From IMG/VR virus record IMGVR_UViG_2778261532_000011: a stretch of 10,172 bases of DNA; one strand, given 5' to 3'. Source of the stretch: a virus. Its lineage: Duplodnaviria > Heunggongvirae > Uroviricota > Caudoviricetes. Position numbers and translations under genes: made by a program. Positions 1 to 10,172 of this stretch are shown in pieces. Below the pieces are notes generated by a model that did not search any database, was not told the origin of the DNA, and saw only the letters and a list, made by a program, of their open reading frames with translations. Position 1 is the stretch's first letter. Every line of letters starts with the position of its first letter.

Positions 1-276
1 TGGGAGCAGTATGAACACTTGGCAAAATGGCTTATTTATTTCGGTAGTTTATTTGAAGTAAAAGGAACCAATTTTGAGAAAAAATACATACATGCGGTTG
101 AGCACTCAATGACTAATATGAATAAACCTTACGAAACAGGCTGCTCATGGCGAGCATATCTAGCCTGGAAAACAAAATGGCCTTCACTGACAGCATCTAA
201 CCGCTCTCTTATTAAGAATGAGATGGAAGATATCCCGCTACAACAGATTCACGATATTATATCTAAGTTTATATAG
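1..276 (+). CDS. 3' end of a CDS entering from the left edge (partial); product unknown, speculatively the C-terminal nuclease region of a type III restriction Res-like subunit
   Basis: Frame 1 is open from nt 1 (W-E-Q-Y-E-H...) with no in-frame stop before TAG at 274-276, so the TTG at 19 in the ORF track is probably internal. GC of nt 1-120 counted by hand is about 35 percent, visibly lower than the rest of the window. An F-E-V-K about 70 residues from the C-terminus is compatible with the (D/E)xK half of a PD-(D/E)xK nuclease motif; the PD half would lie outside the window. Functional identity is a guess. Confidence 0.55.
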   Translation, partial: WEQYEHLAKWLIYFGSLFEVKGTNFEKKYIHAVEHSMTNMNKPYETGCSWRAYLAWKTKWPSLTASNRSLIKNEMEDIPLQQIHDIISKFI

Positions 277-285
277 TATATTTAT

Positions 286-312
286 CTCCGGCCTAATCTC
301 CCTAGGCCGGAG
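286..312. terminator. Hairpin between convergent genes; putative bidirectional transcription terminator
   Basis: Perfect 10-bp inverted repeat CTCCGGCCTA (286-295) / TAGGCCGGAG (303-312) with a 7-nt loop, lying 9 nt after the plus-strand stop (274-276) and 5 nt before the minus-strand stop (318-320). Flanks are A/T-rich but there is no clean U-run on either side. Confidence 0.5.
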
Positions 313-317
313 AGTTC

Positions 318-566
318 TTAATCAGCATTCAGAAGCAATGCGTTATCTATGATGATCTGCTCCCATTCTTCGAATGCCCGGTCGCGGACACCTTGGGGAA
401 CACTGTTAGTTTTGAAATCGACGACCGTCCGCCATTTCCCGTCCGGGCGGTACATGCGCAGAGCTTTACTTCCCCCTTCCCTGCGCACCTCAACGTTGTG
501 CTTGTCAGCAAACTCTTGTAATGCTCGTAGCGTCCCATGCTTTACTGTGTAGTATCGCTTTTTCAA
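318..566 (-). CDS. lxc: 82-aa small protein with TTG start; probably Lxc/Bof-like modulator of C1 repressor in P1-type phages
   Basis: ORF of 82 codons plus TAA stop (318-320). The start is TTG at 566-564, preceded by GGAGAG about 6 nt upstream. The start overlaps the upstream gene's TGA stop (TTGA overlap at 563-566). I recall P1 bof/lxc as an 82-codon TTG-initiated gene, and the position downstream of a darB-like gene fits recalled P1 gene order. Assignment is by size, start codon and synteny, not by sequence comparison. Confidence 0.55.
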   Translation of the reverse strand: MKKRYYTVKHGTLRALQEFADKHNVEVRREGGSKALRMYRPDGKWRTVVDFKTNSVPQGVRDRAFEEWEQIIIDNALLLNAD

Positions 567-1003
567 GTTTTCTCTCCAGCCTGTGCCAAGGCTTCAACTT
601 CCAAATCGTAAGACTCAAACTCATAGTCCTGGTCGTCAACCTCTTCAGGCACTGGCAGTAAATGCCAGGCTGAGTATATCTGACCATTATCAAAACGCTC
701 CTGGCTGTAGAGCGTCGCGGCTATGAGCGTCAGCGCCGGACGGTCATAACGGTAAATTTTGCGAACGTCACGGTCAACGAGACGACCGAAATTACCATAA
801 CCGCGCTCCAGTAATAATTTTTTAATTTCCGGCCAGTATGGACCATAGCTGCGGTACAGGCGGGGATTTTTCAGTAATCGCCCGCGTAGCCCTGACAGGA
901 AGAAATCAACGTATTCGTCTTCTGTCTTTCCTAACAACGCTGTACGGAGTACCGCCTCAAGATATGTTTTATTCGGTTTTATTGTATCAGATAGTGTGGC
1001 CAT
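563..1003 (-). CDS. 146-aa hypothetical protein with acidic C-terminal tail, co-directional with and immediately downstream of the darB-like gene (Ulx position in P1 gene order)
   Basis: ATG at 1003-1001, TGA stop at 565-563, no internal stops. It is translationally coupled to the 82-aa gene. The C-terminus is acidic (EEVDDQDYEFESYDLEVEALAQAGEKT). I recognise no catalytic motif. Confidence 0.6.
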   Translation of the reverse strand: MATLSDTIKPNKTYLEAVLRTALLGKTEDEYVDFFLSGLRGRLLKNPRLYRSYGPYWPEIKKLLLERGYGNFGRLVDRDVRKIYRYDRPALTLIAATLYSQERFDNGQIYSAWHLLPVPEEVDDQDYEFESYDLEVEALAQAGEKT

Positions 1004-1012
1004 ATTATGCGA

Positions 1013-1030
1013 CGCCCGGCGAACCGGGCG
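1013..1030 (-). promoter_or_regulatory. RNA hairpin (7-bp GC stem, UUCG loop on the minus-strand transcript) between an AGGAG Shine-Dalgarno-like sequence and the ATG of the 146-aa gene
   Basis: Plus-strand CGCCCGG (1013-1019), CGAA (1020-1023), CCGGGCG (1024-1030). On the minus-strand mRNA this reads UAA(darB stop)-CAGGAG-CGCCCGG-UUCG-CCGGGCG-UCGCAUAAU-AUG. The linear distance from AGGAG to AUG is about 27 nt, which is too long unless the hairpin forms. Confidence 0.5.
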
Positions 1031-1036
1031 CTCCTG

Positions 1037-4000
1037 TTATGCGTATTGTTGGATGACGGCCAGAACGTCCGCCACGTTGTGTTTTGTCTCGATAATCCAC
1101 CAGTTACCCGGGAAATCGCTGTTCTTCGCCTTCGCTGGCAGCCAGCGAGCGCCGAATTTCGCCTTGATTGCGTCTTTCGCACGGAAAAGAACGCCTTTCA
1201 TGCCTGAGGCTTCCTGAAGCCCAAATACCTCGCCAGCGGCGAATTTCGGTGCGTACATCATCTTCAGGTCGGCGGTGGATACGCGATAATTCAGACCAAG
1301 AGACTGAGCTATGCTGGTGGCATCACCCTGTATTGATGATAACTCTTCTTGTTTCTCGTTTCTGGCGGCAATTTCTTCCTCCGTGATGTTGCCAAGGGCC
1401 AGGTTTATCCGATCAGCGTCTGCCTGTTTCTCTTCATCGGTGCGCCCGGAAAGTACCGTGTTAATTCTGTGCAATATCTCCACATGGTTCTTGCGCATGC
1501 TGAGCAATTCCGGCGTAACCTCGTTAAGGTCCACCAGCCCAAGGATGGCAAGGTCGGAAAACATTGATACCAGGTTGTAGGTCATGCGATAGCTGAGTTG
1601 GCCATAGGCTGATGGCAACTGCACCGCATCCATTTGATAGGCATCCATAAATTTAGAGCCGTCGTTTACGACATCCGCAATTGCCGGTGTGATTTTCCCT
1701 GTGGCGGCGGCCTCCCTGATTGCTGTTACCCACGATTGAGTCAGCGCGGCGACTGCATGATTCAGATTGGCTTTCCGTTCTGCTGCAATGCGCGCGCTTG
1801 CTGCGTCCATTGCCTGCTTGATCTCGTCTTTATTGCTGTAAATGCCAATGGGGCCAAACTGTGTTGTGGTGATCTCATAATCTGACGCCCGGAACTCATT
1901 GGTACCGAAAATGGCATTGGTGACCTCAAGTTCAGAATCCCCGTTACGAGTAGCCCCCTGGCTTGTTTTCTCCGGCATTTTTGCGATCGCATCCGCTATG
2001 TTCTCCTGAATTGCTTCAGGGGATAGCGTATCTCCGTATGACGCGATTACATCGCCATAATTGGAACCAAACAGTTCAACCAGGAATGCTTCTGCCAAAC
2101 GGACCTGGCGGTTATTCCCTTCAGACATCATACCAAGCACCCATTTTGCAATTGACGACTTCAGCGCGCCGTCACGGCGATCCGGGTAAACCGCATGCTT
2201 CAGTGGGTCCGTATAGGTACCAACAAAATCAATGCTATAGCCTGACTCTGTAGTCTGAACGCCGTATGAGTCAGTGATTTTGATCATGCCGCGCTGCTGG
2301 AAACGGTAGAAATCGTCACAGGAAATGATGTCGTTAATCCCGGCGATGGAGACGCCACCACTGATTTTCTGCATAACAGCATCTTCATCGGGAGTTACAT
2401 CAACCTGTTTATCCAGCGTCTTCACATCCCAGTTACCCGATTTGGTGCCTTTGAAGGTAAAGATGATCTCCACGTCTGCGCGCTGGCTGTCGAAGTCCAG
2501 CGACTTAATGCGAACGATATCACCGGCACAATCGTAGTATTGGCCTACACGCCATGAGCGATCGCCGATAACAAGGAACTCATTCGCATGGTTAACCAGA
2601 TCAGGATCAACATCCAGAATGCCTTTATTTATTGCATCCTCCACCAGCGGGCGCAGGCGTTTGATATCCGTCGCGGCCTTCTGAGTACGGTTCAATAATT
2701 TCTCATAGCGGGAGATGGCCTGAGAGATATTAGCCTTGCGCTGAATGGCGCTTTTCAACGACGCGCGATACTGTGCTAACAACGTACGGTCTGTGTGATG
2801 GACGCTACCCCAGCGGGCCTTCCAGTCTGCGTTATCAGCTGCTTTGGCCATTACCGCCTGTTTGAATTTAGCTACCTCGGCGGTGGTCTTTTCAAGTTCC
2901 GCTTTGCTTCGCTCTAATTCAGCGGTAAGTACCTCCACATCCTCGCCAGCTGCGTGCTGCGCCTTGATGTAGTTCTGAAGGTCGATAGTAGCCTGTTCTT
3001 TCTGGCGAGCGCGTTGCGCGGCTTTCGCCTTATCCATTTGAACCTGCATCATTGCCAGACGTTCGCCATCATCCTTAGCGGTATACATCTGCATTTCGAT
3101 CATATCGTTGGCGTCGGCGTTCTCCATTTCAGACTTATCTGAGCGGAGGATATCGGAGATCCAGCCTGCTTTACGCTTCAGCGTCTTCAGTCGGTATTCA
3201 TCGAAAGAACCCTTGCCGCAGTAGTAGTGAACGCGAACGCTTGCACGGTTGGAACCAACTCGGGCACCGCGACCGTTACGCTGTGCGATACTGGCTGGTG
3301 TCCATGGCAACGTCAGATGATGGATGTCAGTCGTTCCTCGATGCAGGTTGATACCCACCTCTGCCTTTTTGTTGCAGATGATGATCGGAGTCCGGCCCTC
3401 CTGGAAGTCGGCAGCAATCTTTTCCAGCCCGCCCAGCGACATTTCATTTTGCTGCGCGATATAGGCGTCATACAGAGCCATTTGCTCGTTGTATTTCGCT
3501 ATCTGTGCATCTGTTGGTTCATCCGGTAGCTCTTTCGGCGGTTTAACCGCTTTCAGTTTCTTACCGGTTTTACCTGCCTCGGCAACCGTCTGAGCATTCA
3601 GGATCCCCACCTTTGAAGGTTCAAGGTTAAGAGCATTGCAGATAATGCGCTTGAGCTTCTGGTGCTGCGTTTTTTCGTCCGTGAAGATGATTTGCTTACC
3701 TTCCGGGAAAAACTCCTTCAGCGTGGCGATCAGCTTCGCGTATTTGGGCGTAACGGGGTGAGTTACGGTCTGTTCGTCAATGCCAAACTTGGCCAAGCGC
3801 TTATTCACTTCCTGCTCGAACGCTTCCGGAACCTGCAACTGAATAAACTCGCCCTTATCTATCAGGGAGTATTGCGATTGCTGCGTGATTGAATCATCAC
3901 TGTCGTCGTCTTCGCTGGTGGCTTGTTTGGGCAAACTGTCCGCCAGCTGCTGCACCGCATCGGCGTACTCCGGCAGGAAACGATAGGTGATCCGGCGATA

Positions 4001-7000
4001 GTACAGGTCCATGTCAGTACATACGCGGTCCATATCCCTGATTATTGAGAAGATCGGACGGGCTTTCTCGTGCTCAATCACTCCGTCTTCATCGACCGAG
4101 GTCGTTACGCCATTGTTGGCTTTGGCCGCCGCTTCCGCCTGCTGACGCAATTCTTCATACGCCGCCAGTTGTTCTTCAGTAAGTGGTGCATCCTGCTGGT
4201 GTTCGTCCAGCTCCGGGATCTCCACGGTATCCTTAACGTCTTCCGCCGTTTTAAGCGTTACCCAGCGATGGAATATACCGCGCAGCGCATCAAGGTTTTC
4301 AAAGCCCACCAGCGCCATTTTTTCTTCAACTTCACCGCTAATTTTCTGTACCGTTTCCAGCCTGGTCTTGCCGAAGAATTTAACGAAGTCATCAGGACCG
4401 TAGATCCCCATCTTCTGCCAGTATTCCTTCGGCAGAACATGAGAAAGCATGTTGTATGCATCGATCGGGGTGTTAACGACTGGCGTTGCAGTCAGAAGAA
4501 CCGGCCCGCGCCCGCCATTCTTTTTCATCAGGTACGCGTTTTTAATTGCCATATCCCGCGCCGATTGCGCCACCGCGCTGGTGGGCAGATAGGCCAGTTG
4601 TGACGCTTCGCGACCATTTTTATAGCTATTGCGGTAGTTGTGGCCTTCGTCGGCGATCACGCTGTCGAAGCCCATATCCTCAAAGTACGGATACTTCTCT
4701 GCTTTTTCGGTACCGGTATCTGAATACTCCGACAATACCCGGCGACGCGCTGCCTCTTTGCGGTGGGAGTCGGAGTCCATTGCGCTGGCTACGCGCCCGG
4801 CGGCAACGAAGTCATAAAGCATATCCTGTGCATGCTCATCTACGGTGTCATCACGTAGCGGAATGCGGGCGTATTGCTCTTTGGTAAACACGACTGCACG
4901 GTAATTTGAGTGCGGTATCGCGTTCATCCGCGCCGTGATAGTGGCTTCATCTGCCAGCTTAAGGGCATCGCGCATAAGTGGAGTGCCATCAGCACCAAGG
5001 ACAGGTTTACCGTTCTCATCGAGCACCGGCACCTGGCGAATCTGATCGCCATCCATCAGCACATCAAGACCGACGAACAGGTAGTTACTGAATGCCTCTT
5101 CACTCAGGAATTCTTTTGCTTCGTAATACCAGTTTTCCAGCACTGATTTAGGCACTACATACGCAGTACGGGTGGAGCGACCGTTCTCATAGTTGAACGC
5201 CTCAAGCGCCAGCGCGGTCGTGGTTTTACCCAGCCCGGTGCCGAAGCCCAGGATGCCGCGCCCATCTTCGGACAGTCGGCGCACCTCGCTATTCTGGTAA
5301 TCAAATGGCTGGCGCTTACCGCTTAATCCCTTCAACCCAAGCGGATCGCCAGAGTGTTCATACGGGATATTGCTATTGAACACATCGTTGTATTTGGCAA
5401 CCAGCTCATCGTAGCGATCGTGCGTCTTGATCCACTTATTGAACTGGTCCTCAAGCAGTGCCATCTGCTCGCGGTAGCCGTTCGCCGTCGCGCTATCTTT
5501 GCCACCGATACGCGCACCATTGAGATACTTTTCCAGCTGTGCCGGGAACCCGGTCGCGTTTTCACCTGATTTACGGTCCCACTCGTAGCGGATCTCGCCT
5601 GTTTCTTTATCCTTGCGCTGGACGACACCGTATCGGTGCCCGACGAACAGACCATCACCACCGTGATAGGTGTCAGAAACCATTTCGTCGCCTTCCAGCT
5701 GCACTGACTGCACATAGCGCAGATCCGGATAGCCGTTTTCCTGCAAAAACTCCAGAATGACGGAGCGGTCGAACCAACGGCTATTGAGCTTAAAGCGGAT
5801 ATTCTCTGCTGGCGTCTTGATGCGCTTCTCTTCGATCGCTGCCAGCTGATTAAGGACGTTGTTCTTTACTGGACCGTCGGGGAGTGTGGCAAGGAATTCC
5901 TGTTTTGGAGCCACTATCTCGTTAATGTCGCCGCTGGTGGCGCGGGCGAACGGAACAATCCCGCCATACGGTGAAACCGCAATGCCAGGGGTGCTGGCCA
6001 ATAAATTAAGCAACTCGTCATCACTGGCTGGCAGTTCGCCGGTAAACGCAAGGCGGAAATCATCGAGCTGGATTGGATCGCGAGTGAGATCACTGTAGAG
6101 ATAACGCAGGGTGTCCTGATAGCTGGTGGAGTCATAACTGGCGCTGGAATCATGCGTAACCAGTTTTCCTGTCAGCTCGTCAGAAATAGTGCCATCCAGC
6201 TTAATTGCACCACGGAAAGCAAACCAGGCGCGCGCACCGCTCCCCGATAATTTCGCTATCGGACCGCGACCGGGGTTACCAAAACGGTCAATCTCTGCCT
6301 GCAAACGGGATACCAGAGAAAGGCGCTGCTGTTCGATTTGTTCAGCACTATGCCCGGCGGCCTTCATGTCCTGATATTCAATTAACATCCGGCCAATCAT
6401 CGCCCCGCGATACAAGCGTTCACGGTATTTTTCAGGCTGGCTGTTAATCCAGTCCACCAGCTGCACCATATCGTCGCTGATTGATGTGGTGTACTTATCG
6501 CGGACATTTGCCATCTGGGTAAATGTCATGCCGAGACGGCCTTCTGTTGTAGTCAGGTTACGCTGAAGAGCCTCCCAGCTATCCGCGCCATAACTGGCAG
6601 CATCGATCTTAAGTTCCTTCCCGGCATCAGCTTCAATCCAGCGACCACCAGCATATTTTTGCCATACGCCATTAATCAGGCGCATTTCCCCTTCACCAAC
6701 AACGTCTGCGGTCGGTGACGGTTCAGCCATATCGAGCAAAGACCAGTCGATACGGCTTTCGAAACGATGAATCAGCTTCGCTTTAAGAGCCTGGTTATCA
6801 ATCTGACCGTCGGCACGAACCTCAATACGCCCCTGGAAGCCCTTTTCCTGGGTGCCATGAACAAACCGGCGGCCGTCCTTTTCAAACCACTTGCCAGAAA
6901 TAAACGTTGGCCAAAGCACATTTGCCAATTCAAGAGTGCTCTCATCCACCAGGGGGATTTTCTCAGCCATCTCTGCCGGATGTTTGCGCATCAGCACCAC

Positions 7001-7804
7001 ATCTACGACCGTACTGGTCCCGTTTGCGTCAAAAGTACCGGTAGGCAAGCGGTGAGCGCCAAGAAATTCAGCTTTACGGGATAGGCGCAGGCGCAACCGC
7101 TTCATGTTTGAACCTGAAACAATGGACGGCGGCACAATCACACACATGAATCCGCCTGGCTTTATCTTGTCCAGCATGCGGAGCATGAAGTAAGACCCCA
7201 TGTCCGTTTCTTCTGCGTAAGGCTTATCGATGTTGCGTGTGTTATCACGACCACCGAACGGAACGTTACCCACAACATGGTCGAATGAATCGTTAGGCGT
7301 GCTTACAGCCAGCTGTTCGAACGGGGAAATCTGTACGCTGTCTTCCGGGTGTAACAGCTGGTTTATACGACCGGAAACACTGCTGATCTCAGTCGCGGTC
7401 ATCACCGTACCAACCGGTTTTGTCTCATTAAAAACGCCGGTGCCCGCCGATGGTTCCAGAGTGTTACCTACGTCCGCGCCGTAGAGCTTCATGATCTCCC
7501 AGACACCTTCAGCGATCGGCTTTGGTGTGTAATATTCGGAGACGGACCCGCCAATGCCGCCTTCGCCGGTGTACCCAGCCAGGATCTGGCGCTGTTCATC
7601 TGTCAGTGTCGCGCCGTCCACCAGCGAATTAAGCAAATCTATCGCCTTCTGATTCGCCTCCCGGCGTAGTCGGTCATAGCTTTTGCCTTCCACCTTTTCC
7701 ACGCCGTATCTAATCGGCGCTCGATGAGATGTTATTGCCCTAATGTATTTCAATATTTCGCTGACACTTGAACAGCGAAACACCCCCATAGATAGCTTTT
7801 TCAT
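1037..7804 (-). CDS. darB: 2255-aa multidomain protein: N-terminal gamma-class N6-adenine methyltransferase domain plus central SNF2-family (SF2) ATPase/helicase plus coiled-coil and unassigned C-terminal region; DarB-like phage antirestriction protein
   Basis: Single uninterrupted ORF; ATG at 7804-7802 preceded by AAGGA (7815-7811) 6 nt upstream; TAA stop at 1039-1037. Methyltransferase motifs in gamma order: YYTP (aa 91-94), LEPSAGTGVF (aa 116-125), FDHVVGNVPFGG (aa 174-185). SNF2 motifs: PFDYQ (aa 833-837), GILGFGTGLGKTTTA (aa 851-865), DEGHNYRN (aa 1052-1059), LLTATPVVNTPIDAYNML (aa 1103-1120), IIICNKKAEVGINL (aa 1474-1487), QRNGRGARVG (aa 1508-1517). The length equals my recollection of P1 DarB (2255 aa), which is described as a methyltransferase/helicase fusion. 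Confidence 0.9.
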   Translation of the reverse strand: MKKLSMGVFRCSSVSEILKYIRAITSHRAPIRYGVEKVEGKSYDRLRREANQKAIDLLNSLVDGATLTDEQRQILAGYTGEGGIGGSVSEYYTPKPIAEGVWEIMKLYGADVGNTLEPSAGTGVFNETKPVGTVMTATEISSVSGRINQLLHPEDSVQISPFEQLAVSTPNDSFDHVVGNVPFGGRDNTRNIDKPYAEETDMGSYFMLRMLDKIKPGGFMCVIVPPSIVSGSNMKRLRLRLSRKAEFLGAHRLPTGTFDANGTSTVVDVVLMRKHPAEMAEKIPLVDESTLELANVLWPTFISGKWFEKDGRRFVHGTQEKGFQGRIEVRADGQIDNQALKAKLIHRFESRIDWSLLDMAEPSPTADVVGEGEMRLINGVWQKYAGGRWIEADAGKELKIDAASYGADSWEALQRNLTTTEGRLGMTFTQMANVRDKYTTSISDDMVQLVDWINSQPEKYRERLYRGAMIGRMLIEYQDMKAAGHSAEQIEQQRLSLVSRLQAEIDRFGNPGRGPIAKLSGSGARAWFAFRGAIKLDGTISDELTGKLVTHDSSASYDSTSYQDTLRYLYSDLTRDPIQLDDFRLAFTGELPASDDELLNLLASTPGIAVSPYGGIVPFARATSGDINEIVAPKQEFLATLPDGPVKNNVLNQLAAIEEKRIKTPAENIRFKLNSRWFDRSVILEFLQENGYPDLRYVQSVQLEGDEMVSDTYHGGDGLFVGHRYGVVQRKDKETGEIRYEWDRKSGENATGFPAQLEKYLNGARIGGKDSATANGYREQMALLEDQFNKWIKTHDRYDELVAKYNDVFNSNIPYEHSGDPLGLKGLSGKRQPFDYQNSEVRRLSEDGRGILGFGTGLGKTTTALALEAFNYENGRSTRTAYVVPKSVLENWYYEAKEFLSEEAFSNYLFVGLDVLMDGDQIRQVPVLDENGKPVLGADGTPLMRDALKLADEATITARMNAIPHSNYRAVVFTKEQYARIPLRDDTVDEHAQDMLYDFVAAGRVASAMDSDSHRKEAARRRVLSEYSDTGTEKAEKYPYFEDMGFDSVIADEGHNYRNSYKNGREASQLAYLPTSAVAQSARDMAIKNAYLMKKNGGRGPVLLTATPVVNTPIDAYNMLSHVLPKEYWQKMGIYGPDDFVKFFGKTRLETVQKISGEVEEKMALVGFENLDALRGIFHRWVTLKTAEDVKDTVEIPELDEHQQDAPLTEEQLAAYEELRQQAEAAAKANNGVTTSVDEDGVIEHEKARPIFSIIRDMDRVCTDMDLYYRRITYRFLPEYADAVQQLADSLPKQATSEDDDSDDSITQQSQYSLIDKGEFIQLQVPEAFEQEVNKRLAKFGIDEQTVTHPVTPKYAKLIATLKEFFPEGKQIIFTDEKTQHQKLKRIICNALNLEPSKVGILNAQTVAEAGKTGKKLKAVKPPKELPDEPTDAQIAKYNEQMALYDAYIAQQNEMSLGGLEKIAADFQEGRTPIIICNKKAEVGINLHRGTTDIHHLTLPWTPASIAQRNGRGARVGSNRASVRVHYYCGKGSFDEYRLKTLKRKAGWISDILRSDKSEMENADANDMIEMQMYTAKDDGERLAMMQVQMDKAKAAQRARQKEQATIDLQNYIKAQHAAGEDVEVLTAELERSKAELEKTTAEVAKFKQAVMAKAADNADWKARWGSVHHTDRTLLAQYRASLKSAIQRKANISQAISRYEKLLNRTQKAATDIKRLRPLVEDAINKGILDVDPDLVNHANEFLVIGDRSWRVGQYYDCAGDIVRIKSLDFDSQRADVEIIFTFKGTKSGNWDVKTLDKQVDVTPDEDAVMQKISGGVSIAGINDIISCDDFYRFQQRGMIKITDSYGVQTTESGYSIDFVGTYTDPLKHAVYPDRRDGALKSSIAKWVLGMMSEGNNRQVRLAEAFLVELFGSNYGDVIASYGDTLSPEAIQENIADAIAKMPEKTSQGATRNGDSELEVTNAIFGTNEFRASDYEITTTQFGPIGIYSNKDEIKQAMDAASARIAAERKANLNHAVAALTQSWVTAIREAAATGKITPAIADVVNDGSKFMDAYQMDAVQLPSAYGQLSYRMTYNLVSMFSDLAILGLVDLNEVTPELLSMRKNHVEILHRINTVLSGRTDEEKQADADRINLALGNITEEEIAARNEKQEELSSIQGDATSIAQSLGLNYRVSTADLKMMYAPKFAAGEVFGLQEASGMKGVLFRAKDAIKAKFGARWLPAKAKNSDFPGNWWIIETKHNVADVLAVIQQYA
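2645..3082 (-). other. Predicted coiled-coil / charged helical segment of the large protein (approx. aa 1575-1720)
   Basis: Run rich in A/E/K/Q/R with heptad-like spacing (ERLAMMQVQMDKAKAAQRARQKEQATIDLQNYIKAQ...AELERSKAELEKTTAEVAKFKQAVMAKAADNADWKARW). Judged by eye only. Confidence 0.4.
3215..5317 (-). other. SNF2-family ATPase/helicase core of the large protein (approx. aa 830-1530)
   Basis: Walker A GTGLGKT encoded at nt 5222-5245 and DEGH at nt 4640-4651, both verified by reverse-complementing the sequence. SNF2-type motif III (LLTATPxxNTPxDxYNML) and motif VI (QRNGRGAR) are present. There is a long insertion between the two RecA-like lobes (aa about 1130-1360). Borders are approximate. 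Confidence 0.75.
6980..7543 (-). other. N6-adenine methyltransferase domain of the large protein (approx. aa 88-275)
   Basis: Motif X-like YYTP, AdoMet-binding motif I EPSAGTG (nt 7430-7459), and catalytic motif IV position reading N-V-P-F (within nt 7253-7273) instead of the canonical (D/N/S)PP(Y/F/W). Domain borders are approximate. Confidence 0.7.
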
Positions 7805-7814
7805 TGGTAATCCT

Positions 7815-7835
7815 TAACAAGTGACTAGTGTTAAA
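7815..7835. promoter_or_regulatory. Palindromic element in the 75-bp divergent intergenic region between the darB-like and portal-like genes; candidate operator or late-promoter element
   Basis: TTAACA (7815-7820) and TGTTAA (7830-7835) are inverted repeats flanking AGTGACTAGTG, which contains the ACTAGT palindrome. The element overlaps the darB-like Shine-Dalgarno (7811-7815) and lies about 45 nt upstream of the portal-like TTG start. No convincing sigma70 -35/-10 pair is visible in either direction. Confidence 0.35.
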
Positions 7836-7870
7836 TTCCGTTCAAACACGATGCGAATTATTCTAATTAA

Positions 7871-10172
<2,302 letters not shown>

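Follow-up and report, generated by a model that had tools for sequence, protein, structure and literature searches.

Knowledge of the darB gene of bacteriophage P1, of its product, of the packaging of this product and of the resulting phenotype goes back to 1987, and that of the P1 sequence to 2004. We know of no solved structure of DarB and of no published biochemistry. The protein is part of the P1 virion proteome (~40-45 copies per head), entering the head by means of an N-terminal targeting signal and aided by Hdf, DarA, DdrA, DdrB and Ulx (PMC9024508). It is reported to be ejected together with the DNA and protects against the type IA enzymes EcoKI and EcoBI (PMC12810830), while being dispensable against the type IB enzyme EcoA (PMC9024508, PMC12810830). 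Dar protection is strictly cis and covers whatever DNA a Dar+ head has packaged (PMC12707154). As to how DarB works, reviews favour "occlusion" or leave the mechanism undefined (PMC12707154, PMC12602166, PMC9009780), a methylase-translocase partnership has been proposed for the DarB family (PMC5512222) and, the main genetic study (Piya et al., 2017) aside, we found no report in the literature of DarB-dependent methylation of P1 DNA or of ATPase activity. The preliminary description of the sequence studied here likewise called this mechanism poorly understood.

In terms of architecture, DarB is the archetype of the methylase-SWI2/SNF2 "dyad" of polyvalent proteins (Iyer, Burroughs, Anand, de Souza and Aravind, 2017; PMC5512222). 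It has in common with the other members the order LPD36, EcoKI/TaqI-like adenine methyltransferase and SNF2-type ATPase, and differs from its dyad relatives in the C-terminal ~530 residues, which they lack.

The darB gene and its surroundings

The window analysed, that is, the whole stretch of 10,172 nucleotides, is dominated by one ORF on the minus strand (1037..7804; 2255 codons plus the stop) that starts with ATG, has a Shine-Dalgarno sequence (AAGGA) 7 nt 5' of it, and lies at the position homologous to that annotated darB in P1. The ORF list and the translation, free of internal stops, agree with the single giant 2255-aa gene described before. The preliminary description had gone no further than placing it in a known class, as an antirestriction protein resembling DarB. 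By BLASTP the product is of equal length to P1 DarB (AAQ13985) and identical to it at 2223 of 2255 residues (98.6%) with 0 gaps, and this collinearity leaves no room for a frameshift splitting the ORF. At the DNA level, identity to P1 (AF234172 / NC_005856) is 98.3% over window positions 318-9959, and to P7 98.2%. Both the gene order, lxc-ulx-darB / prt-pro as in P1, and the PHROGs assignment (phrog_1685 over residues 1-2255, 4037 bits, with a further match to a "DarB-like antirestriction" family) point the same way. The giant gene is darB itself, of a P1-type phage-plasmid (plasmid prophage), and an ordinary, already described darB. ORFs on the opposite strand within it (e.g., 4070-4603, 177 aa) were regarded as chance.

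The codons of darB differ from those of P1 by 71 synonymous and 32 non-synonymous changes. The substitutions spare the catalytic cores and cluster in residues 287-402 (7 of 32) and 1900-2120. An identical protein is encoded by P1-like elements on 17 public contigs, which bear ddrB as well; on such contigs the ddrB-ParB gene is found ~8 kb from darB, and hdf, darA, ddrA and ddrB fall beyond the 10-kb window. Apart from the 32 substitutions, the locus differs from that of P1 (and P7) at its two ends, sharing with it the length of DarB, the neighbours ulx, lxc, prt and pro, the control region and, but for one residue, the targeting sequence.

Downstream of darB and on the same strand are ulx (563..1003, 146 aa), identified by the P1 annotation and by its PHROG ("Ulx-like anti-restriction", E 4.5e-66), whose product aids the entry of DarB into the capsid (PMC9024508), and lxc, or bof (318..566), the modulator of the C1 repressor, annotated so in P1 and as "modulator protein" in plasmid records, a neighbour that lies outside the Dar system. 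The divergent darB/prt control region (7805..7879) was read by homology with P1, with 2 differences in a 161-base alignment. On this basis it contains the late promoter LPpro (plus strand, 7819-7837; P1 feature 9002-9020, offset 1183) and overlaps a predicted sigma-70 promoter, PdarB (minus strand, 7860-7890; P1 feature 9043-9073, same offset), which extends 11 bases into prt; a promoter scan gave a minus-strand match at 7886-7857. The portal protein gene prt (ORF and P1 annotation) occupies 7880..9589 on the plus strand (569 aa). At the opposite end of the window, where P1 has its EcoP1 res-mod genes, lies the 3' end of a SIR2-family gene (1..276, plus strand), annotated in plasmid relatives as a 434-aa SIR2 family protein (PF13289, SIR2_2) ending here; it has PADLOC matches to PDC-S25, ThsA and LmuA.

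The gene following prt is pro, which codes for the head processing protein or prohead protease (9582..9959, plus strand). P1 homology ends at 9959, after the first 126 of the 339 codons that pro has in P1, and what follows is, by sequence identity, the terminal 213 bases (istB end) of the IS21-family element IS100 (9960..10172, minus strand), with 100% identity to the istB ends of IS100kyp from E. coli genomes. The same junction is found, identical, in a public draft contig and is therefore real. The insertion argues against a working virion for this element, and with pro broken its DarB may no longer be packaged at all. It could even be held that, mature heads being prevented by IS100, the darB copy is a relic with no current function. 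We consider this doubtful, since darB is intact and relatives with an intact pro encode the identical protein, which indicates a recent insertion; besides, the argument bears only on the present state of the element and not on the identity of the gene.

Chi sites are 44-fold enriched in this DNA. There are 11 of them within darB, whereas the whole window would be expected to have 0.27; the enrichment extends to the Pantoea and Serratia homologues, and the flanks of darB and other P1-like DNA are Chi-rich too. In the experiments of Skutel et al. (2024), darB on a plasmid relieved EcoKI restriction by way of its DNA (Chi plus an EcoKI site), and it still did so with a stop codon or with mutated catalytic residues. 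The trans assays in the literature are thus uninformative about the DarB protein. Taken at face value, the demonstration with plasmid-borne darB fragments could mean that darB DNA provokes RecBCD/RecA-dependent, ClpXP-mediated alleviation of EcoKI restriction in which the protein has no part. As an account of Dar protection this is extremely improbable, given that restriction alleviation acts in trans and on the whole cell while Dar protection is strictly cis (PMC12707154), that the protein is physically present in virions (PMC9024508), and that the enrichment is not specific to darB; Skutel et al. themselves treat the Chi effect as an artefact that needs to be controlled for. We have accordingly rejected the Chi sites as the real function of the locus, Dar acting in cis and the flanks being Chi-rich as well.

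Domain structure and conservation of DarB

We have compared the protein with profile and structure databases and, in a family alignment of 17 members, with 16 full-length homologues that are 32-50% identical to it. The first 30 codons (7715..7804, minus strand, as are all the regions below) correspond by homology to the capsid-targeting sequence defined in P1 DarB, where they suffice to direct a reporter into P1 heads and residues 6-10 are critical (PMC9024508). Here 29 of the 30 residues are as in P1, the sole change being N2K, and residues 6-10 (MGVFR) are unaltered. The link between this architecture, capsid packaging and antirestriction against type I systems, drawn in the preliminary description, likewise matches the literature on P1 DarB (PMC9024508, PMC12810830, PMC12707154).

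Residues ~45-290 (6935..7672) comprise, judging by Pfam, motifs and PDB matches, a helical N-domain of the LPD36 type (domain names after PMC5512222) with the sequence GEGGIGGS, and a methyltransferase domain, placed by Pfam at residues ~90-290. The N6-adenine methyltransferase proposed earlier was recovered by profile search, with N6_Mtase (residues 145-290, 33.7 bits, gathering threshold 20.4) and Eco57I (residues 166-244, 31.8 bits, cut-off 25.3) both above threshold. The motifs appear in gamma order: YYTP at 91, EPSAGTG at 117 (AdoMet motif I) and NVPF at 180 (motif IV). From profile and motifs a gamma-class N6-adenine DNA methyltransferase is predicted. Its best matches among PDB sequences and solved structures are HsdM subunits of type I enzymes (EcoKI, StySJI), with which it shares the catalytic fold and the order of motifs, although only ~100-170 residues align (E 2e-5 to 1e-3), and DarB differs from them in being fused to a motor and in having no detectable HsdS partner or target-recognition domain.

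A linker region without a recognised family (residues 291-830; 5315..6934) separates this domain from the ATPase. Per 50-residue block, 27-59% of the sequences in the family alignment match DarB here, and some residues are invariant, e.g., W298 and S350-R351-I352. A Pfam search even at E<=10 gave only noise for the linker and for residues 1561-2255.

Residues 831-1550 (3155..5314) form a putative SNF2-type superfamily 2 ATPase core of two RecA-like lobes with long inserts, recognised by Pfam, motifs and PDB profile matches. In the first lobe, SNF2-rel_dom scores 42.1 bits against a threshold of 24.9 (residues 849-911, the best stretch spanning just profile positions 19-85 of 290) and ResIII is also above its gathering threshold (residues 833-904); in the second, Helicase_C scores 27.7 bits against 23.5 (residues 1455-1517). 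The sequence carries GLGKT at 857 (Walker A), DEGH at 1052 (motif II), TATP at ~1105 and QRNGRGAR at 1508 (motif VI), and the family profile matches the SMARCAD1, INO80 and SNF2L2 chains in the PDB. The ~455 residues between motifs II and VI are compatible with large inserts, and helical inserts typical of SNF2, in both lobes, have been stated for the methylase-SNF2 family (PMC5512222). With both lobes above threshold and motifs I, II, III and VI present, a member of the SNF2 family of superfamily 2 ATPases is predicted. Of the "complete SNF2-type translocase core" claimed in the preliminary description, the SNF2 type was upheld, with modest scores; its completeness as a translocase is read from motifs and not from activity. 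With the methyltransferase and SNF2 profiles both above threshold, and with the alignment to P1 DarB, a lack of similarity to any of the three can be discarded.

Parts of several host defence proteins resemble this core. For DISARM DrmD, Zorya ZorD and Dpd DpdE the matches are partial, in the second ATPase lobe or around Walker A, at 16-44 bits against curated cut-offs of 500-1100 (DrmD, 43.8 against 610; DpdE, 31.3 against 500). We rejected membership in these families, the likeness being that of a shared superfamily or ATPase lobe only; moreover, they serve the host whereas DarB serves the phage. A PglX match was far below its cut-off and was also rejected.

Throughout the 16 homologues every motif of the methyltransferase and of the ATPase is either invariant or replaced conservatively, while the sequence flanking them has diverged. 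The family forms are YYTP, EPSAGxG, N[VPA]P[FY], GxGKT/S, DE[GA]H, TATP and QRNGRGxR. The second position of motif IV, a conservative variant, is V in 13 of the 17 members and A in one, the canonical NPPY appearing in two. As the motifs have been kept at 32-50% identity, selection appears to act on both enzyme activities. Neighbouring genes have been kept as well: the pro-prt / darB-ulx arrangement is preserved in two distant homologues whose DarB is 33-37% identical, with a ulx homologue (140-147 aa) after darB and a prt relative (38-41% identical) divergent from it.

The ATPase is followed by a long helical segment (residues ~1563-1726; 2627..3118) of low conservation in the family alignment. 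The coiled coil announced at this point is a probable one according to a single-sequence AF2 model of residues 1561-2255, which has helices at fragment residues 3-105 and 110-166. Overall this model has a pLDDT of 44 and is unusable beyond the long helices; block pLDDT reaches ~63-84 only at fragment residues 61-150 (residues ~1620-1710), staying at ~48-63 elsewhere.

Finally, the C-terminal region (residues 1727-2255; 1040..2626) is the least conserved portion of the protein, contains 14 of the 32 differences from P1 DarB and is seen only in the DarB family. Where ~500 residues with no recognised motif had been reported, we count ~530 residues without a Pfam family match. It could be modelled with confidence (pLDDT 82.8) as a beta-barrel, followed by a helical body and a small alpha/beta end bearing the invariant K2214 and W2236. 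The barrel has a weak Tudor/BAH-like resemblance. A Foldseek search of this model against PDB and BFVD gave nothing at E<=0.001, aminotransferase-like matches being rejected for a TM below 0.2, and the family profile of the region found nothing among PDB sequences (best E 0.19). A homologue search with the C-terminal 695 residues returned near-identical proteins, 71-72% relatives and chimeric fragments only. Whole-protein homologues were seen only in Pantoea (72%), Serratia (45%) and further proteins of DarB length; the match to a Pseudoalteromonas homologue (39%) reaches residue 1939, and relatives in Lachnospiraceae, a Streptomyces plasmid, Bacteroidota and Betaproteobacteria cover just residues ~45-1650. 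One might speculate, as a rather unlikely possibility, that these ~530 residues are a target-recognition module that docks particular host restriction complexes, the type I (or BREX) systems that a given P1-like element evades depending on how this module varies. If true, DarB would be a modular, retargetable "methylase-motor-adaptor".

How DarB could protect the entering DNA

The best overall explanation of the locus, to which we give about an even chance, is the darB gene of a P1-type phage-plasmid encoding a packaged, cis-acting antirestriction protein with an enzymatic mechanism. That DarB is an enzyme tracking along the entering duplex in cis, rather than a passive shield, we infer with slightly less than even confidence. 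DarB would load onto the DNA during entry, and its SNF2-type motor would drive it along the duplex with ATP. The methyltransferase domain, EcoKI-HsdM-like and without a recognisable specificity subunit, would methylate adenines with relaxed specificity. For a type I enzyme to turn from cutting its site to maintaining the methylation there, a single methyl in either strand is enough; sparse processive hemimethylation could therefore disarm enzymes of unrelated recognition sequence, only on the DNA that carries DarB. The motor may additionally dislodge type I complexes already bound at their sites, and the fast-evolving C-terminal third probably contacts proteins, be it the capsid or Ulx, or a host target.

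SNF2 remodellers translocate on duplex DNA, and it is these remodellers and HsdM that are the nearest solved relatives of the ATPase and of the methyltransferase, respectively. This, together with catalytic motifs kept down to 32% identity and changes from P1 that avoid the catalytic cores, supports an enzymatic mechanism. On the other side, motif IV is NVPF and not the canonical NPPY/F, a variation that could weaken or alter catalysis, and DarB is dispensable against EcoA, a finding not easily accounted for if hemimethylation were indiscriminate.

The cis-only effect has classically been read, and in reviews still is (PMC12707154, PMC12602166, and the introduction of PMC5512222), as one of passive shielding, with DarB and the other Dar proteins staying on the ejected DNA and blocking binding or translocation of type I enzymes, with neither methyl transfer nor ATP hydrolysis and with the enzyme domains as DNA-binding modules. 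The ~40 large copies of DarB per virion do accompany the DNA; however, 40 copies cannot coat 94 kb, nor could they locate sites whose sequences are unrelated. When the translocation of a type I enzyme is blocked, the usual outcome is cleavage, so that a shield of this kind would provoke cutting rather than prevent it. That the AdoMet, catalytic, Walker A, DEGH and arginine-finger motifs are strictly kept down to 32% identity would also be unexpected in a mere DNA clamp, and we think it improbable that DarB acts in this manner.

Another possibility is that only the motor matters. The ATPase would remove or stall EcoKI/EcoBI complexes in the way of Mot1 or RapA, the methyltransferase fold being an HsdM-like decoy that docks HsdS/HsdR, and methylation being irrelevant. 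SNF2 motors are indeed remodellers of protein-DNA complexes, the methyltransferase is nearest to HsdM, including that of EcoKI, one of the enzymes counteracted, and such a mode of action would explain why type IA enzymes are counteracted and type IB ones are not; that DarB interferes with the assembly carrying out restriction has been suggested (PMC9009780). However, the match to HsdM is weak (E 2e-5 to 6e-4) and covers the catalytic fold only, and the AdoMet-binding and catalytic motifs, needless in a decoy, are as conserved as those of the ATPase. We give stripping by the motor alone a small chance.

As a gene find this locus adds little, darB being already known. What is new comes from the comparison, namely the conservation of the motifs down to 32% identity, the conserved synteny and a C-terminal third confined to the family that models well. 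The methylase-SNF2 fusion of which DarB is the archetype is widespread, being delivered into cells by phages and plasmids, and for the question of how DarB works the comparative results give concrete mutants and a domain map, in which the catalytic motifs, the variable family-specific C-terminal module and the darB-ulx / prt-pro synteny can be put to use.

The giant gene and its surroundings

In megablast searches of phage records, positions 318-9959 of the window matched phage P1 (AF234172, NC_005856) at 98.3% DNA identity and P7 at 98.2%, with other near-full-length P1-like phages mostly at 98.1-98.8% and one at 97.9%. The genes annotated in the matched P1 region are lxc, ulx, darB, prt and pro. 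The giant product equals P1 DarB in length and is identical to it at 2223 of 2255 residues, with no gap. It is covered end to end by phrog_1685 of PHROGs (4037 bits), and the 146-aa gene downstream matched the PHROGs entry 'Ulx-like anti-restriction'. Plasmid records spanning 80% or more of the window number 425 (the best span 1-9959, at 98.4-98.6%), the exact DarB protein sequence is carried by 17 public contigs, and the draft contig NTOC01000053.1 is identical to positions 1-10122 with no mismatch. Near-identity to P1 and the PHROGs, plasmid and contig matches together identify the gene as darB itself, residing in a P1-type phage-plasmid of Enterobacteriaceae, which sharpens the preliminary description of a DarB-like protein of a known class.

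The gene (1037-7804) lies on the minus strand, a detail missing from that description, and has a ribosome-binding site (AAGGA) 7 nt 5' of its ATG. As first described, it is a single open reading frame, with 2255 codons and no internal stop. Five Pfam families passed their own gathering scores, N6_Mtase (aa 145-290), Eco57I (aa 166-244), SNF2-rel_dom (aa 849-911), ResIII (aa 833-904) and Helicase_C (aa 1455-1517), and the full set of diagnostic motifs was found, namely YYTP (91), EPSAGTG (117), NVPF (180) and GLGKT (857), followed by DEGH (1052), TATP (about 1105) and QRNGRGAR (1508). The N6-adenine methyltransferase domain and SNF2-type core reported from the sequence are thus both present. 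Pfam gave no family match for aa 291-830, nor for the ~530 residues beyond the long helices that follow the ATPase (aa ~1563-1726), in agreement with the coiled coil and ~500 residues without known motif noted before.

P1 homology stops at 9959, inside pro past codon 126, and from 9960 to 10172 the sequence belongs to IS100, an IS21-family element, of which it is the istB end. The 9959/9960 junction was found in no complete E. coli genome of the collection searched; NTOC01000053.1 is identical across it. IS100 thus breaks the head-processing gene, and with pro interrupted the P1-like element has probably lost head maturation and would be defective as a phage. At the other end, positions 1-276 (plus strand) hold the 3' end of a SIR2_2 gene (434-aa product, with ThsA, PDC-S25 and LmuA-like PADLOC matches), separated from lxc by an 11-bp GC-rich hairpin (285-313). 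In many P1-like plasmids this gene stands where P1 has its EcoP1 res-mod genes, suggestive of an exchange of defence genes at this site. In elements encoding an identical DarB (L042/L043, 3486-4163 and 1-2354) a Tad2-like gene, Tad2 being an anti-Thoeris family, adjoins ssb, and ddrB is found ~8 kb from darB; some such elements have an insertion of IS605 type separating lyz from pro, and in some, aminoglycoside phosphotransferase genes of the strA/strB type lie past the SIR2 gene.

Two distant DarB homologues (33-37% identical), on replicons of 73 kb (L004) and 82 kb (L005), keep the P1-like local gene order: on one side of darB both have a portal gene (38-41% identical) together with a pro homologue, the two genes being divergent from darB, and directly downstream a ulx homologue (28-37% identical), the pro-prt/darB-ulx block being retained. 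A DarA gene lies near darB in one of them, and L005 carries a Rep3 gene. Both are apparently P1-like phage-plasmids, well beyond the similarity seen at the level of Enterobacteriaceae.

Conserved enzyme cores and the C-terminal module

Among 16 full-length homologues, 32-50% identical to the window protein, none of the methyltransferase or ATPase motifs varies except by conservative substitution (motif IV reads N[VPA]P[FY]), with conservation peaks at aa 51-300, 801-900, 1051-1200 and 1451-1550 and minima at aa 1651-1700 and 1951-2200. Relative to P1, darB differs by 71 synonymous and 32 non-synonymous codon changes, the latter concentrated at aa 287-402 and 1900-2120. From motif conservation and this substitution pattern, purifying selection seems to act on both cores, a sign of catalysis more than of mere binding. 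Passive occlusion by DarB is an unlikely way of protecting DNA, disfavoured by the conserved catalytic residues as well as by its copy number, about 40 per head (PMC9024508). The best solved relatives found with the family profile, the type I HsdM subunits of EcoKI and StySJI for the methyltransferase and SMARCAD1, INO80 and SNF2L2 for the ATPase, fit the proposed activities. No PDB chain went beyond remote, domain-level sequence similarity to DarB, and hence there is no solved DarB structure.

When one genome was scanned for each species, near-whole-protein matches came only from Pantoea (72%) and Serratia (45%). The match of a Pseudoalteromonas relative (39%) extends to aa 1939, and relatives in Lachnospiraceae, a Streptomyces plasmid, Bacteroidota and Betaproteobacteria are confined to aa ~45-1650. 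This narrow distribution of full-span matches indicates that the C-terminal module was added specifically in P1-like elements. When aa 1561-2255 was used for an exhaustive HMMER search, just 68 of 1.84 billion representative proteins matched, each of them either of DarB length (about 2100-2300 aa) or a fragment. The module (aa 1727-2255; 1040-2626, minus strand) is the least conserved region of the family and holds 14 of the 32 substitutions relative to P1. Codon changes number 14 non-synonymous versus 11 synonymous at aa 1751-2250, versus 18 and 60 in the rest of darB, and selection on the module may be relaxed or diversifying.

How DarB might protect entering DNA

The analysis itself establishes which gene this is, which domains it encodes and that its motifs are conserved; for packaging, action in cis and the EcoK/EcoB phenotype we rely on the literature. 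DarB belongs to the P1 virion proteome, its residues 1-30 alone send a reporter into the P1 head, and Ulx and DdrB aid its incorporation (PMC9024508). Protection from EcoB and EcoK requires DarB, Ulx and DdrB, and that from EcoA requires DarA (PMC12810830). DarB served Iyer et al. as the archetype of a 'dyad' that combines, in this order, LPD36, an EcoKI/TaqI-like adenine methylase and a SWI2/SNF2 ATPase, and they proposed ATPase-dependent methylation of injected DNA (PMC5512222). Its mechanism, described preliminarily as poorly understood, is indeed still termed undefined (PMC11109961; PMC9009780).

Chi (GCTGGTGG) occurs 12 times in the window (1313-8093, both strands), 11 of them inside darB, versus 0.27 expected from shuffles. 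Copies on the coding strand are mostly read as L-V, those on the template strand as T-S; the flanks of darB are likewise enriched, and there are 7 sites in the Pantoea homologue (72% protein identity) and 8 in that of Serratia (45%). The window count agrees with that already published for P1, and in EcoKI assays Chi gives rise to a plasmid artefact (PMC11109961). Skutel et al. found that plasmid-borne darB DNA relieves EcoKI restriction, stop codons notwithstanding, through Chi plus an EcoKI site and depending on ClpXP; since relief comes from the DNA, trans assays are uninformative about the protein (PMC11109961). Such a DNA-level Chi effect can hardly explain protection by the phage, being contradicted by its cis action.

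Tentatively, at somewhat below even chances, we favor relaxed-specificity adenine methylation of the entering DNA by a DarB that moves on its SNF2 motor. One methyl group, on either strand of a type I site, makes the enzyme carry out maintenance methylation instead of restriction. DarB would ride the entering duplex, driven by its motor, and methylate adenines along it; because of that switch, sparse and processive hemimethylation would guard against enzymes whose sites are unrelated, and protection would be limited to DNA that carried DarB. Against methylation count the lack of any report of DarB-dependent methylation in the accessible literature, the NVPF variant of motif IV, which could weaken or alter catalysis, and the protection from EcoA without need for DarB (PMC12810830). 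Stripping by the motor, in which the HsdM-like domain would serve as a decoy for docking, would account for the type IA specificity and leaves the conserved AdoMet motifs unexplained; we consider it improbable.

The darB of the window is an already described gene and adds little as a discovery. Room for novelty lies only in the unsolved mechanism of DarB and in its family-specific C-terminal module.
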